From Escherichia coli (GTDB lineage: Bacteria > Pseudomonadota > Gammaproteobacteria > Enterobacterales > Enterobacteriaceae): DNA of 64,000 nt. Location of the stretch: assembly GCF_003991155.1 (NCBI RefSeq), contig NZ_CP031297.1; one strand, 5' to 3'. Shown one piece after another: positions 42,722 to 63,800 of this stretch (the stretch's first letter is position 1; every line of letters begins with the position of its first letter). The position numbers were made by a program, and so were the translations under genes. The notes under the pieces are model-generated. The model saw nothing but the letters and a program-made list of their open reading frames with translations, did no database searches and had not been told where the DNA came from.

Positions 42722-43630
42722 ATGAAGAAAAATGACTGTTTGTGCCGTCGTTACACTGCTAAAGAGTGGGGCAATGACGAAACCACAATAGAAGTCTTCA
42801 TTGGCTACAAGTTGCTCCGGGAGCCCAGCTCCTCGGAGCCAGGCCAATTCACGATGGTCGAGCTACGCCGAACCGTCACTGATGGGAAAGCTGAAAATTG
42901 GTCTGAGACAAAGCTCGAAGGACCTTTTGAAGCTAACGGCCCAGACACGATCCCAATGTCCTACAAGGACAAAGAAAGCCAGTATGTGTCACAGTTTCTC
43001 AGCCAGGGGTACACCTTTCTGGATGAGGTGCTGGTAAACGCAGAGACACAGACGGTGCTGGAAGGGGGGAATGTTTCAGCCGGACAAACAGCCAGCTTGG
43101 GATCTCTCAACTGGCTGTTATCTCCGCCCTCTGAGTTACCTCCAGGTGACATAAACCTCTTCAAAGGTTTTGTTGCTGGGGTTTTTGCCAAAGGAGCCGG
43201 TTTAATCGGCTTTGAGGTTGCTCGGAGCGAAGGCTCAAATGACTTGCTACCCAGTGTGCTGATGCGTACTGACAGCGGTTATGAGCTTGGGGTTAGCACT
43301 GGACTAGGCGAAAACACTATCCATCCAGCTACGCTGGAAGGCGCTGGTGAACTCCGCCCGGAACATGGTCACAAACCCCTGCTGATGTTGGTTTACCTGC
43401 AACAGCGTTTCGCGGATGACTTTTCAAACGTAGAGAAGCCGCTGGTGGCATTCTGTGATGAACAGGGTGATACCTTCGACTACGAGCGTTTTGATTCACT
43501 AAAACCCCTCATTGAACGGTTTGGTTTCAGCTACGACGAAGTAAGAGCAGATGCAGAAAGGCTTGGCCTTGTATCTGAGCTGATTCGCCTGGCAGAGATC
43601 GACGCCGAACAAGAGGATCACTTTTTTTAA
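42722..43630 (+). CDS. Hypothetical protein
   Basis: AGAGGTGA SD; 302 aa. Confidence 0.8.
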   Translation: MKKNDCLCRRYTAKEWGNDETTIEVFIGYKLLREPSSSEPGQFTMVELRRTVTDGKAENWSETKLEGPFEANGPDTIPMSYKDKESQYVSQFLSQGYTFLDEVLVNAETQTVLEGGNVSAGQTASLGSLNWLLSPPSELPPGDINLFKGFVAGVFAKGAGLIGFEVARSEGSNDLLPSVLMRTDSGYELGVSTGLGENTIHPATLEGAGELRPEHGHKPLLMLVYLQQRFADDFSNVEKPLVAFCDEQGDTFDYERFDSLKPLIERFGFSYDEVRADAERLGLVSELIRLAEIDAEQEDHFF

Positions 43631-43675
43631 CCCTTACGGGGGCTTGCTCCCCGAAAGGGGCGTTGGCCCTCTCCA
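43629..43675 (+). repeat. Intercistronic GC-hairpin element (AACCC-N-CGGGGG...CCCCG type), example 1
   Basis: Starts at the preceding stop codon; one of at least 17 similar elements between genes from 43.6 to 63.8 kb. Confidence 0.6.
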
Positions 43676-43693
43676 AATAACTTGGAGGTCATG

Positions 43694-44221
43694 ATGTCTA
43701 AAGGCGTCAACAAAGTAATTCTGGTCGGTAATCTCGGTTCTGACCCGGAAATTCGCTACATGCCAAGCGGCACTGCCGTTGCCAACTTCAACGTTGCAAC
43801 AACGGATACGTGGCGCGATAAGCAGTCTGGCGAGCAAAGAGAGCATACTGAGTGGCACCGTATTGTGCTTAAAGGTCGTTTGGCGGAAGTCGCTGGTGAG
43901 TACCTGAAAAAGGGCTCCCAAGTCTATCTCGAAGGGAGCAACCGCACCCGGAAGTGGACTGACAGCCAACAAATCGAGCGCTACACCACCGAAGTACACT
44001 GCGTTGAAATGCAGATGCTTGGTGGTCGTGGAAATGCACCTCAGGACAACTCTCAACGTGCAGCGCCCCAAAAAGGGCAACGTACAGGAGCCGGTACGCA
44101 ATCTGCTCCTGTGCAGCAATCAGCACCGCAAGGTGGTATGGGCGGAGGCTATGGTCCCGCTCCTGATGGCTGGGATGATGACATCCCGTTCATGCGGCTG
44201 CACCACTTGGCTGGCGGGTAA
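43694..44221 (+). CDS. ssb: Single-stranded DNA-binding protein
   Basis: OB-fold N-terminus, Gly/Gln-rich linker, acidic tail DDDIPF. Confidence 0.95.
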
Positions 44222-44238
44222 CACCGCCAACTCTTACT

Positions 44239-44284
44239 AAACCCCACGGGGGCACTCATGCCCCGAGGGGGTCATGGTGTCCTC
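44239..44284 (+). repeat. Intercistronic GC-hairpin element, example 2 (CATGGTGT pairs with ACACCATG at the recT start)
   Basis: Upstream segment is complementary to the SD/start region. Confidence 0.6.
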
Positions 44285-44315
44285 AAACCGTTCATTCGTG
44301 AATTGGAGAAACACC

Positions 44316-61995: not shown

Positions 61996-62601
61996 ATGTC
62001 TAATTCAAATTTCGGCTTTCTAGCTCTGGCCTTGCGCCAACGCCTGATCAAACGCTGGTCACTGATGCACTCTGTTCAACCGGAGTCTGTGTTGGAACAC
62101 AGCGCTGTTGTTACCCTGCTTTCCTACCTGGCTGGCAATATTGCCATTCAGCAAGGGAAGTCGGTGGATCTGGCAGTCATGCTTGCTCATGCTTCGTTGC
62201 ATGATGCAGCCGAGGTTCTCTGTTCGGATGTTGTAACACCGGTCAAGAAAGCAAACGCTGTTTTGCAGCGTGAGTTTGAACGACTGGAAAAGGCCGCAGA
62301 GGACAAACTCATCCAGACTCTTCCCGAAGAACTCCAGGATGCAGTCGCCATAGCCTTCGCTCCCGGTGGCTATGAACAATCACTGGTTAAGGCCTGTGAT
62401 ACCTACTCCGCTTACATCAAGTGCAAACTTGAGGTGGCCGCAGGTAATGGCCTTGAGTTCCAGGATGCTCTCAGCAAAATGGAACGTGTTGTTGCTCAGG
62501 TGAAATCGGACTTCCCGGAAATCGACGCTCTGGACAAATGGTTTGGTAACGGACTCGGCCATTCAGTAGATAAACTGCTGGCAGGGGGTAACGATGACTA
62601 A
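61996..62601 (+). CDS. HD-domain 5'-deoxynucleotidase, YfbR-like
   Basis: Aligns along its length with E. coli YfbR as recalled: RWSLM...SVLEHS...SLHDAAEVL...TPVKK...LVKACDTYSAYIKC. Confidence 0.85.
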   Translation: MSNSNFGFLALALRQRLIKRWSLMHSVQPESVLEHSAVVTLLSYLAGNIAIQQGKSVDLAVMLAHASLHDAAEVLCSDVVTPVKKANAVLQREFERLEKAAEDKLIQTLPEELQDAVAIAFAPGGYEQSLVKACDTYSAYIKCKLEVAAGNGLEFQDALSKMERVVAQVKSDFPEIDALDKWFGNGLGHSVDKLLAGGNDD

Positions 62602-62863
62602 TCCAATCCCTGGCGACATCAAGATTAAGGACTTTGGCCGCGACCGGAAATTCCGTTCGGTTGATGAGCTTCAAAGCACTTTGTCAGAACAGTACAAAGG
62701 TCAGCATGTCAGCATCGTTTACCCTGCAAAGCCCAGCGGTTTACTCCGCACGGTTTTTGTCAGTGTCGATGATGCTGGTGGCGTGAATCGAACCTATGGG
62801 GACCAGTCTCCTGTCGATTTTTCTGCCATCAAAGATGACCTGTATGTACCAAGTGACCTGTAG
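62594..62863 (+). CDS. Hypothetical protein
   Basis: GGGGGTAA SD; overlaps preceding stop. Confidence 0.65.
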   Translation: MTNPIPGDIKIKDFGRDRKFRSVDELQSTLSEQYKGQHVSIVYPAKPSGLLRTVFVSVDDAGGVNRTYGDQSPVDFSAIKDDLYVPSDL

Positions 62864-62876
62864 GAGAGCACTAGCT

Positions 62877-63095
62877 ATGGTGGTGATCATCGTAAACACA
62901 GGACACTATGAGTTTATCGGCCTTGGTGAGACCCACGGACAAGCCACAGAAGGGCTTTTGAAACGCTGGGACGAACACTGCGAACGTAATCCGGATGCTG
63001 AGTCTGGTTACATGCAGGAGCTGATAGAAGAAGGAAGCGCACAAGTTGTCGAGATGGAGCCCGGCTCCGCCGTAATTTACGGACTTGACGGCTAA
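62877..63095 (+). CDS. Small hypothetical protein (72 aa)
   Basis: ATG at 62877 with AGGAGA SD. Confidence 0.5.
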   Translation: MVVIIVNTGHYEFIGLGETHGQATEGLLKRWDEHCERNPDAESGYMQELIEEGSAQVVEMEPGSAVIYGLDG

Positions 63096-63168
63096 GCCTT
63101 CTCAACTAACCCACTCGGGCGCATCATCCCGAGAGGGTGTGGTGCGTCCTAACCAAAAGGAATGCACT

Positions 63169-63726
63169 ATGTCTAACTTTGAACAAGCTCTGGAGCGTAC
63201 TGACGGTAAAACACTGATTCTCAGCAATGGGAGTAAGTGGGCAGGCCAAGACCCGGACAGTATTCAGACTTTACTGGATGTCCTGGGTGACAACGTTCTT
63301 GACCCGATGTTTGAGCAGTATCACTGTTATCGCCCATACCCGTTTGAACCAATGGTGAGGACGGGGCGAAATGGCGAAATGTTCCAGCCTTGGCTTGGGG
63401 CAGCCTGCTTCTTTGGGAACTTCCTGACTGTCTCTCATGTTTTCAACATCATCACGAAAGATGACGGTGTTGTTGAGGCCTTAACAGAGGCGATCCGGAA
63501 GAATATGGCGACTGAACAGTACCAGCAGAATGCCTATGAGCGTTATGCCGGTTGGTTCTACGCTGAAACCAGCGAAGGGTTAAGGCTAGTCTCTCCAAGT
63601 GAGGCTGCCGACATCCGAGCTGGCGCAGTTTCAAAGCTGCGTTACCCAAGAAACTTCGAGGTTATGAAAACTGCGGTTCTCAAAGGTCCTCGATTTGATA
63701 CTGAATTAAGCCGCAAGGCTTCTTAA
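63169..63726 (+). CDS. Hypothetical protein
   Basis: ATG at 63169 with AAAGGAA SD. Confidence 0.75.
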   Translation: MSNFEQALERTDGKTLILSNGSKWAGQDPDSIQTLLDVLGDNVLDPMFEQYHCYRPYPFEPMVRTGRNGEMFQPWLGAACFFGNFLTVSHVFNIITKDDGVVEALTEAIRKNMATEQYQQNAYERYAGWFYAETSEGLRLVSPSEAADIRAGAVSKLRYPRNFEVMKTAVLKGPRFDTELSRKAS

Positions 63727-63800
63727 CCCAAACATTAACCCCACGGGGGACATCGGTCCCTGAGGGGATGGTGTCTCCCTCTGAAATTAAGGAGATACCA

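Follow-up and report, generated by a model that had tools for sequence, protein, structure and literature searches.

A recurrent two-hairpin mRNA module predicted to occlude the ribosome-binding sites of accessory-operon genes in an IncC plasmid backbone and related mobile elements

Coupling by unmasking of a ribosome-binding site (RBS) that is held in mRNA structure is known from the coat/replicase and lysis genes of phage MS2 and from repY/repZ of plasmid ColIb-P9, in the latter case through pairing of a hairpin loop with a site adjacent to the RBS. In the type I toxin mRNAs dinQ, tisB and zorO, the primary transcript is inert with its RBS paired, and processing together with an alternative fold activates the message. 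Here, we describe a module of two adjacent hairpins, about 65-75 nucleotides (nt) in length, that recurs between genes in a 64,000-nt stretch of DNA from Escherichia coli (assembly GCF_003991155.1, contig NZ_CP031297.1; the whole stretch is referred to as the window). The upstream hairpin (hairpin A) is conserved in sequence and the downstream hairpin (hairpin B) is specific to the following gene. We regard this module family as a multi-copy form of a known type of control, in which a message with alternative folds has its RBS occluded; the family occurs widely among conjugative elements of clinical importance.

The module shares with the MS2 and ColIb-P9 sites a Shine-Dalgarno (SD) sequence or start codon buried in a hairpin, mutually exclusive folds and a loop complementary to the segment that closes the RBS; however, those are single idiosyncratic sites with a stop codon within reach, whereas the module stands before approximately 25 genes and the stop codon is mostly out of reach. 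Similarly, the type I toxin mRNAs concern single toxin genes with antisense partners, whereas the module precedes ordinary operon genes that are not known to have an antisense RNA. The RNase III hairpins of phage T7 are likewise repeated structures of approximately 60 nt that separate the cistrons on the long messages of a mobile element, and leave a 3' hairpin on the upstream message, but as a rule they do not pair with the next SD and their helices are longer than those of the module. Repetitive extragenic palindromes (REPs), the mosaic elements built from them (BIMEs) and attC sites are also short imperfect palindromes that recur after open reading frames (ORFs). REPs, however, occur in both orientations without RBS pairing, and attC sites depend on an integrase and on single-stranded DNA, whereas the module has one orientation, a fixed distance to the start codon and one half tailored to its own gene. 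A selfish repeat of the REP type or of the type of miniature inverted-repeat transposable elements was ruled out, given that all copies are gene-oriented and end at the start codon.

Two published observations are also close to the module. Ribosome termination structures (RTSs) are stable mRNA structures after stop codons that are enriched at intercistronic distances of at least 25 nt and have been proposed to act as insulators (Chemla et al. 2020, Nat Commun, PMC7518266). In addition, according to one sentence in a study of this plasmid family, the RBS of vcrx089 is likely sequestered in a predicted RNA structure, which was invoked to account for the polar effect of a vcrx089-090 deletion (Roy et al. 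2020, NAR, PMC7498323). This structure is the module copy at 41678-41749, and the repeats rptI-IV of the same study are intergenic sequences of this region. Roy et al. 2020 treat these repeats as DNA substrates of Bet/Exo, and the main text contains neither a family of approximately 25 modules nor the two-hairpin anatomy or its spread. Apart from this single copy, a description of the family was not found in the literature searched, the coverage of which was incomplete.

The window is 99.9-100% identical to the backbone of IncC (IncA/C2) multidrug-resistance plasmids, e.g. pAR060302 and pSN254, as well as to the Salmonella island GI-VII-6. The tra genes occupy positions 1-40 kb, and accessory operons, all co-oriented, extend from approximately 40.6 kb to the end of the window. 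They encode vcrx087, the CobS-like ATPase vcrx089, ssb, bet, exo, a DUF3150 protein, a VWA protein, methylases and a PAPS-reductase-family protein. Module copies were sought by a regular-expression scan combined with folding and subsequently by two covariance models, R1 (built from 25 IncC copies) and R2 (built from R1 matches); gene starts were those of the RefSeq annotation of pAR060302, the use of which revealed further copies. In total, 23 full-length copies (E<=2e-6 with R2) lie in the window, all on the + strand and all within 40,646-63,807 (Table 1), and neither model finds a copy in 1-40.6 kb. In the accessory region each long gap between co-oriented genes carries one copy, such that intergenic gaps are bimodal, i.e. 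either at most 13 nt without a module or at least 57 nt with one. A preceding sequence-only reading of this DNA had given gaps of 45-90 nt, a range that does not describe this distribution. Its count of at least 17 copies between 43,629 and 63,785 was an undercount, because 20 copies lie in that interval, and three more, at 40646, 41066 and 41678, lie just upstream. Degenerate versions precede the genes starting at 50398, 57300 and 57805. In IncC the distance from AACC to the ATG is 54-76 nt.

Hairpin A is built in two tiers from four sequence runs, C1 ((U)AA-CCC), G2 (CGGGG), C3 (CCCCG) and G4 (GGGG), with a variable loop X between G2 and C3; the two stems are C1:G4 and G2:C3. The stem AACCC-N-CGGGG...CCCCG of the sequence-only reading is thus present but incomplete, since the AACCC itself pairs with the GGGG located 3' of that stem. 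The apical and internal loops of hairpin A are free to vary in size and sequence. Hairpin B follows after 0-4 nt and is formed by an anti-RBS, consisting of X' and C5 (which reads CUCC), that pairs with the downstream GGAG, the spacer and usually part of the AUG. Both hairpins comprise 9-12 bp, and the loops of hairpin B are 8-13 nt long and G-poor. In 19 of 20 copies the minimum free energy (MFE) structure shows both hairpins side by side and places the SD in the 3' arm of hairpin B, and in the ensemble the SD is paired in all 20, with a probability of being unpaired of at most 0.5 in each. When compared with dinucleotide shuffles, the check proposed with the sequence-only reading, all of the 20 copies listed first fold better than the controls (z -2.3 to -5.6, mean -3.5), and a second folding tool applied to three of them gave the same folds with z -3.2 to -5.0. 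The pairings singled out earlier for recT and for the ferredoxin gene were recovered (Table 1), as was that of GGTGCGC (41714) with GCGCACC (41735) before the CobS-like gene, although this last copy lies outside the range in which it had been placed.

The pairing between anti-RBS and RBS is gene-specific. Duplexes of an anti-RBS with its cognate RBS have a mean energy of -15.4 kcal/mol compared to -10.3 kcal/mol for non-cognate combinations, none of 100,000 permutations was as good (p<1e-5), and the advantage of 5 kcal/mol persists once paralogues are removed. In distant relatives the pairing is conserved by compensatory change, which bears out the earlier claim of a segment complementary to the downstream SD or start region. 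Opening the RBS costs 10.4 kcal/mol in module genes and 7.3 kcal/mol in the tra genes of the same window (p=0.0013), a real but moderate excess in predicted occlusion.

Orthologous gaps in pAQU1-type plasmids, in which the flanking proteins are 45-78% identical, retain both hairpins with different sequences, e.g. before yfaE, VWA and exo. Across 122 distinct copies in a model-fitted alignment, the covariation score is 0.318 compared to 0.169 in shuffles, a value that 0 of 500 shuffles reach, and to at most 0.156 with slid partners. In hairpin B, substitutions affect both members of each of the nine pairs. An alignment made by MAFFT without a model gave a consensus of just four pairs, and the hand-derived structure was imposed and the sequences realigned with Infernal. 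Alignments of this kind are fitted to the structure and hence biased towards it; the slid controls and the independent comparison of cognate and non-cognate duplexes argue that the covariation signal is genuine. Four core pairs of hairpin A are near-invariant in identity (111-118 of 122 copies), whereas the adjacent pairs switch among G-C, C-G and A-U. The AA before C1 is also near-invariant in more than 120 copies from distant elements.

Beyond the window, R1 and R2 give 197 matches at E<=1e-3, in IncC, IncA, pT413A, pAQU1, a Vibrio penaeicida plasmid, two Vibrio contigs, pAsa4 and a Pseudomonas luteola megaplasmid. A further 17 matches lie in an SXT/R391-like element and a betaproteobacterial (Eoetvoesiella) element, and nine lie in P. 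aeruginosa pMKPA34-1. The orientation is that of the gene in 347 of 347 matches (197/197, 17/17, 124/124 and 9/9), and the matches stand at a fixed distance from a start codon. A search for related loci seeded with the VWA protein gave three loci. A more distant MOBH plasmid with the same operon and gaps of 55-75 nt has no match to the covariance models. This Citrobacter plasmid carries an ssb-recT-exo-MoxR-DUF3150-VWA operon at 6500-20200, in which the gaps are AT-rich and unstructured with exposed RBSs and contain a repeated AATGAGGTATAT ribosome site and occasional terminator-like hairpins. These gaps are another solution to the same spacing, and the module is therefore not an automatic property of such operons. 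Among Rfam families (release 15), none reached its gathering score in the window, and at E<=1 three unrelated weak matches were found in 40.5-64 kb.

Palindromes that recur between genes could also act at the level of DNA, as annealing substrates, as pause sites for Bet/Exo or as junctions for the exchange of cassettes. Bet/Exo repairs breaks in this region by annealing intergenic repeats, and palindromes have been suggested to pause Exo (Roy et al. 2020, PMC7498323). Moreover, the gene content between modules varies among relatives, and in comparison with pAQU1, which has one module at the ssb site, ssb looks as though it had been a cassette inserted exactly between UAA and CCC. However, the variable half of the module is complementary to, and covaries with, the SD, spacer and AUG of its own gene, a property not needed for DNA recombination, and neither are the uniform gene-strand orientation and the fixed distance to the start codon what this explanation leads one to expect. 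Also, the absence of ssb from IncA reflects an internal deletion rather than an exchange between modules. When IncA (5200-5420) and pT413A (9610-9815) are compared with 43600-44325 of the window, ssb is gone by such a deletion; in both plasmids the ssb and bet modules now stand in tandem, and the SD of the former has decayed from GGAG to GGAA. Finally, folding favors the + strand over its reverse complement by 1.9 kcal/mol (80 of 115 copies, p=1e-6); strand energies were used here since counts of G:U versus A:C pairs on the covariance-model alignment are swamped by register noise in helix B. The pairing to SD and AUG, the gene-linked orientation and the + strand energy favor a role at the mRNA level, and we consider a DNA-level feature improbable as the explanation of the module, a secondary DNA role being possible.

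The alternation of C and G runs allows a second arrangement. When the RBS is forced open, all 20 copies take the same long hairpin, in which G2 and X pair with X' and C5 while C3 and G4 pair at the apex, and such an RBS-free fold is possible in all 20-25 copies tested. This alternative fold comprises about 14-18 bp with energies of -17 to -28 kcal/mol. The open state lies above the closed state by a mean of 8.2 kcal/mol, which falls to 4.4 kcal/mol with C1 masked and to 0-2 kcal/mol in six copies. The native loop X stabilizes the alternative fold by 2.0 kcal/mol relative to shuffled X (p=2e-5), and G2 plus X resembles the SD plus spacer in IncC (p=5e-5) and in IncA; in the yfaE-like copy (52484..52558) the loop of hairpin A matches the RBS spacer at six of six positions. 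The frozen core pairs of hairpin A are the pattern expected of bases that have two alternative partners.

Combining these data, we suggest that the module is a cis-acting mRNA element, and we hold it fairly probable that it (i) occludes the RBS of each cistron, (ii) insulates initiation and (iii) functions as a bistable gate. In the closed fold the RBS of each cistron would be buried and de novo initiation throttled, and initiation would be shielded from ribosomes of the preceding cistron; insulation is proposed because no upstream ORF ever enters hairpin A (0 of 107 cases). Re-pairing of G2 and X with X' and C5 would free the RBS. A bistable gate rather than a fixed clamp is suggested because the alternating C and G runs allow the second fold in all copies tested. 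Given the gene-specific RBS pairing, it is reasonable to regard the module as a putative built-in translational gate for each gene. Candidates for the trigger of such a gate would be, in rough order, none at all (a constant throttle), a cut in the A/U-rich loop of hairpin B, a ribosome at the UAA that adjoins C1, or a factor binding UAACCC.

Several points weigh against this proposal. All functional statements derive from sequence and folding. Compared to the window's other genes, the RBS of a module gene requires only about 3 kcal/mol more to open, and with C1 masked the open state still remains, on average, above the closed one. The covariation of the open fold is 0.212 compared to 0.169 in shuffles, yet sliding the partners by -1 gives 0.211, and the mimicry of the RBS by G2 and X is not significant in pAQU1 or pAsa4; the bistability is therefore probable rather than demonstrated. 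The same palindromes exist in the DNA, where Bet/Exo employs longer intergenic repeats from this region in repair. Also, transposon-sequencing phenotypes show that module genes work in vivo (Roy et al. 2020, PMC7498323) and, therefore, any occlusion is not absolute.

In a more elaborate form of the bistable gate, which we put forward only tentatively, the module would be a shift-register riboregulator with six runs, C1, G2, C3, G4, C5 and SD. With C1 free the SD would be paired and with C1 blocked the SD would be released, such that a single type of signal could license approximately 25-30 genes. A ribosome located at a stop codon next to C1, a cut, or one factor that binds UAACCC might provide this signal, and the genes would be licensed together or in sequence.

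The position of stop codons bears on the first of these signals. According to the sequence-only reading, the element begins at the stop codon of the upstream gene. This holds for five of the 23 copies; in the others the stop codon lies 8-14 nt (seven copies) or 20-34 nt (five copies) upstream of C1, or is more than 130 nt away or there is no upstream ORF (six copies). In the window, 55 nt or more separate the real stop codon from the AUG, and no such stop codon falls within hairpin B. A relay of translational coupling could operate if a ribosome that ends translation of the upstream cistron unpaired C1 and the C and G runs shifted their register, with the result that the next RBS opened. The runs could then pair as G2:C3 and G4:C5 or form the long hairpin between G2X and X'C5, and translation of any gene would depend on that of its predecessor. 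In agreement with a relay, UAA or UAG adjoins C1 in 75 of 114 unique copies across relatives, masking of C1 narrows the gap between the open and closed states as described above, ORFs stop short of hairpin A, and the vcrx089-090 deletion is polar on ssb/bet/exo and cannot be complemented (Roy et al. 2020, PMC7498323). However, the adjoining UAA or UAG is the real upstream stop codon in only about a quarter of the copies that have it, and in 18 of the 23 window copies a terminating ribosome cannot reach C1, which the real stop codon precedes by 8-34 nt or by more than 130 nt. In nested-structure folding, forcing the 12, 15 or 20 nt after the stop codon to be unpaired did not raise SD accessibility in any copy, on which ground simple unmasking by the footprint of a terminating ribosome was rejected for nested structures. 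The TAA of the motif has no frame preference, and a function as an in-frame back-up stop codon was ruled out as well. Copies that follow a promoter or a long structured gap lack a convincing upstream ORF and yet are as tightly closed as the others, although coupling predicts a looser occlusion in the promoter-proximal ones. Given that the real stop codon abuts the hairpin in so few copies, ribosome-driven coupling is not general. It may act at some junctions, and as an account of the family we regard a relay as unlikely.

Two further sources of a translating ribosome were considered and rejected. A leader peptide within hairpin A is not indicated, as an AUG follows G2 in only 14 of 118 copies and the small ORFs end inconsistently. 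Small upstream ORFs serving the copies distant from a gene have no SD-bearing start, except possibly a 58-codon ORF at 40470-40646, which begins upstream of the mapped transcription start.

Insulation fits the stop-codon data at least as well as coupling. Like an RTS, hairpin A would suit an insulating role, and the confinement of modules to the long gaps, with none at the short junctions, resembles the distribution of RTSs. The differences are that an RTS directly follows the stop codon whereas hairpin A often begins 8-34 nt after it, and that RTSs are a statistical folding bias without a sequence family whereas the module is a recurring sequence and structure joined to an RBS-occluding hairpin. 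A separate observation concerns the whole 208-nt gap between exo and the DUF3150 gene (46376-46583), which folds into six or seven successive hairpins (-95.8 kcal/mol, z -6.9) and leaves almost no single-stranded RNA between the two cistrons.

A cut rather than a ribosome could also operate the module. As an element of processing or stability it would be cleaved in the A/U-rich loop of hairpin B by RNase E, or in the stacked helices by RNase III. The upstream piece would then refold into the long hairpin, a 3' protector in which the anti-RBS is locked, while the downstream piece would start with a free RBS. RNase III sites of phage T7 and the processing-activated dinQ mRNA are precedents. The alternative fold uses exactly the bases that would remain on the upstream fragment, the length and G-poor composition of the hairpin B loops suit cleavage there, and processing would be independent of the distance to a stop codon and would cover the promoter-proximal copies. 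On the other hand, inspection by eye revealed no shared motif in the hairpin B loops, and the single stems are short for RNase III, a T7-type site of which has about 20 bp of quasi-continuous double-stranded RNA; hairpins A and B adjoin each other with 0-4 nt between them, and the alternative fold has about 14-18 bp. Overall, processing has in our view a minor chance of being the primary function.

The near-invariance of hairpin A raises the possibility that one trans-acting factor, i.e. a plasmid or host protein or a small RNA, recognizes it (UAACCC...GG...CC...GG) and sets all RBSs together, for which Com of phage Mu acting on mom provides a model. The identity of the four core pairs and of the preceding AA across distant elements agrees with such recognition, and many nearby genes without an assigned function could encode such a protein. 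However, the internal and apical loops of hairpin A vary freely, no complementary RNA of the small-RNA type bearing GGGGUUA was found in the window, and the invariance is also explained by bases with two alternative partners. We therefore consider a common factor distinctly unlikely.

The sequence-only reading had left open whether the gating is translational or transcriptional. The translational part stands as a structural inference, while the transcriptional part was not supported. Intrinsic terminators or attenuators between the genes might be suspected from the placement of GC-rich hairpins after ORFs and from the U-tract that follows two copies (40646 and 41066), but a U-tract is absent in 21 of 23 copies, a consensus scan found 23 terminator-like sites compared to 18.1 expected from shuffles, and the sole strong site on the + strand is in a gap without a module (Table 1). 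Moreover, vcrx087 to vcrx094 are on one transcript according to RT-PCR (Roy et al. 2020, PMC7498323). Terminators are thus a very improbable explanation. Outside the scanned interval, a terminator hairpin, AAAAAGCCCTCCTTCGGGAGGGCTTTTT, is located at 61518-61552 after the PAPS-reductase-family gene; it has a sub-threshold Rfam match to ctRNA_p42d (30.3 bits compared to a gathering score of 50) that is most likely due to chance.

Table 1. Module copies and one terminator in the window. Scores are in bits; z, z-score against dinucleotide shuffles; AcaCD, activator of the preceding promoter.
Feature	Coordinates	Strand	Gene start	Score	Remarks
Module, vcrx087-like gene	40646..40720	+	40714	R2 39.7	MFE two hairpins, z -4.5; first gene after AcaCD promoter; U-tract follows
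Module	41066..41135	+	41129	R2 55.9	z -5.3; UUUUU after alternative fold
Module, CobS-like AAA ATPase gene vcrx089	41678..41749	+	41743	R2 49	Copy noted by Roy et al. 2020
Module, ssb	43629..43700	+	43691	R2 48.9	Real stop TAA adjoins CCC
Module, bet/recT	44240..44322	+	44316	R2 55.2	CATGGTGT (44273) pairs with ACACCATG (44311); extra small hairpin within hairpin B loop
Module, exo	45304..45374	+	45368	R2 54	z -4.1; real stop adjoins CCC
Module, DUF3150 gene	46513..46584	+	46578	R2 59.3	Within 121-nt perfect repeat
Module, VWA gene	47875..47946	+	47940	R2 34.7	
Terminator	49753..49782	+			Sole strong + strand intrinsic terminator in scanned 40.4-60.3 kb (consensus scan); module-free gap, operon end
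Degenerate module, vcrx098-like gene	50337..50404	+	50398	R1 10.4	E 0.4; first gene after AcaCD promoter; RBS still hairpin-bound
Module	50965..51034	+	51028	R2 41.8	
Module, methylase-like gene	51540..51608	+	51602	R2 42.3	
Module, yfaE-like ferredoxin gene	52484..52558	+	52552	R2 36.7	z -5.0; GGTCGCGCTC (52519) pairs with GAGCGTGACC (52542); real stop TAG adjoins CCC
Module	52774..52844	+	52838	R2 42	Real stop adjoins CCC
Module	53948..54013	+	54007	R2 36.9	Real stop adjoins CCC
Module	54209..54273	+	54267	R2 45.8	
Module	54750..54818	+	54812	R2 36.1	UAGCUGG leader motif upstream
Module	55168..55240	+	55234	R2 57.2	Paralogue of copies at 41678, 46513
Module, dcm	55547..55620	+	55614	R2 46.7	
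Degenerate module	57241..57306	+	57300	R1 13	E 0.045
Module	58531..58598	+	58592	R2 43.2	UAGCUGG leader motif upstream
Module, PAPS-reductase-family gene	59008..59072	+	59066	R2 41.7	
Module, vcrx114-like gene	61665..61727	+	61721	R2 25.7	First gene after AcaCD promoter
Module, yfbR-like gene	61931..62002	+	61996	R2 52.1	MFE already the alternative loop/anti-RBS pairing
Module	63107..63175	+	63169	R2 46.2	
Module	63737..63807	+	63801	R2 49.2	z -3.2

Three promoters in this region, before vcrx087, vcrx098 and vcrx114, are AcaCD-dependent according to published ChIP-exo and 5'-RACE data. Repeats of the form CCCCAAAAGGGCAATTACAGCGTTTT at 40504-40529, 50153-50178 and 61554-61579 coincide with the published AcaCD-binding motifs and promoters of these genes. 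Matches to sigma-70-like promoters in 40400-60300 are scarce (three compared to 12.6 +/- 4.1 in shuffles), which is consistent with long operons run from few activator-dependent promoters. The genes ssb/bet/exo and vcrx089-090 help the plasmid to survive restriction and CRISPR-Cas when it enters a new host (Roy et al. 2020, PMC7498323), and several DNA methylases are also encoded in the module-bearing operons.

Two further repeats accompany some of the modules. A leader motif, consisting of a hairpin of the form NNNN-UAGCUGG-NNNN followed by CAAAAACAAACAGCA, occurs in six copies compared to 0.23 expected (40591-40614, 41635-41658, 46470-46493, 50302-50325, 54716-54739 and 58498-58521, all on the + strand), and a degenerate copy lies near 61630. 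Its stem covaries (GCGA/UCGC, GAGA/UCUC, GAGG/CCUC and GCGG/CUGC). All six copies are located in long gaps and precede a module by 25-45 nt; at the AcaCD promoters, only some tens of nucleotides at most lie between the motif and the mapped start of transcription. It may be a stabilizing hairpin at the 5' end or a standby site, and is probably a portion of the rptI repeat described by Roy et al. 2020. The second repeat is a perfect direct repeat of 121 nt (41601-41721 and 46436-46556, spaced by 4835 nt) that contains one complete copy of the module and lies on either side of the hde genes (vcrx089 to exo); this is probably the rptIV pair used by Bet/Exo in a 4.9-kb deletion (Roy et al. 2020).

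IncC plasmids and SXT/R391 elements rank among the main vehicles of multidrug resistance. If the module functions as suggested here, it would add a post-transcriptional layer on top of activation by AcaCD and could explain the reported polar effects. Structured cis-regulatory RNAs rarely form a multi-copy family in one replicon, and the module would be such a case; it would also be a natural portable insulated RBS with dozens of variants tested by evolution. Probes or antisense inhibitors could then be directed at the invariant hairpin as one conserved target throughout a superfamily of elements. Should the shift-register scheme prove correct, the genes licensed in this way would include the anti-restriction genes and the CRISPR-evasion (hde) genes that are needed when these elements enter a new host.

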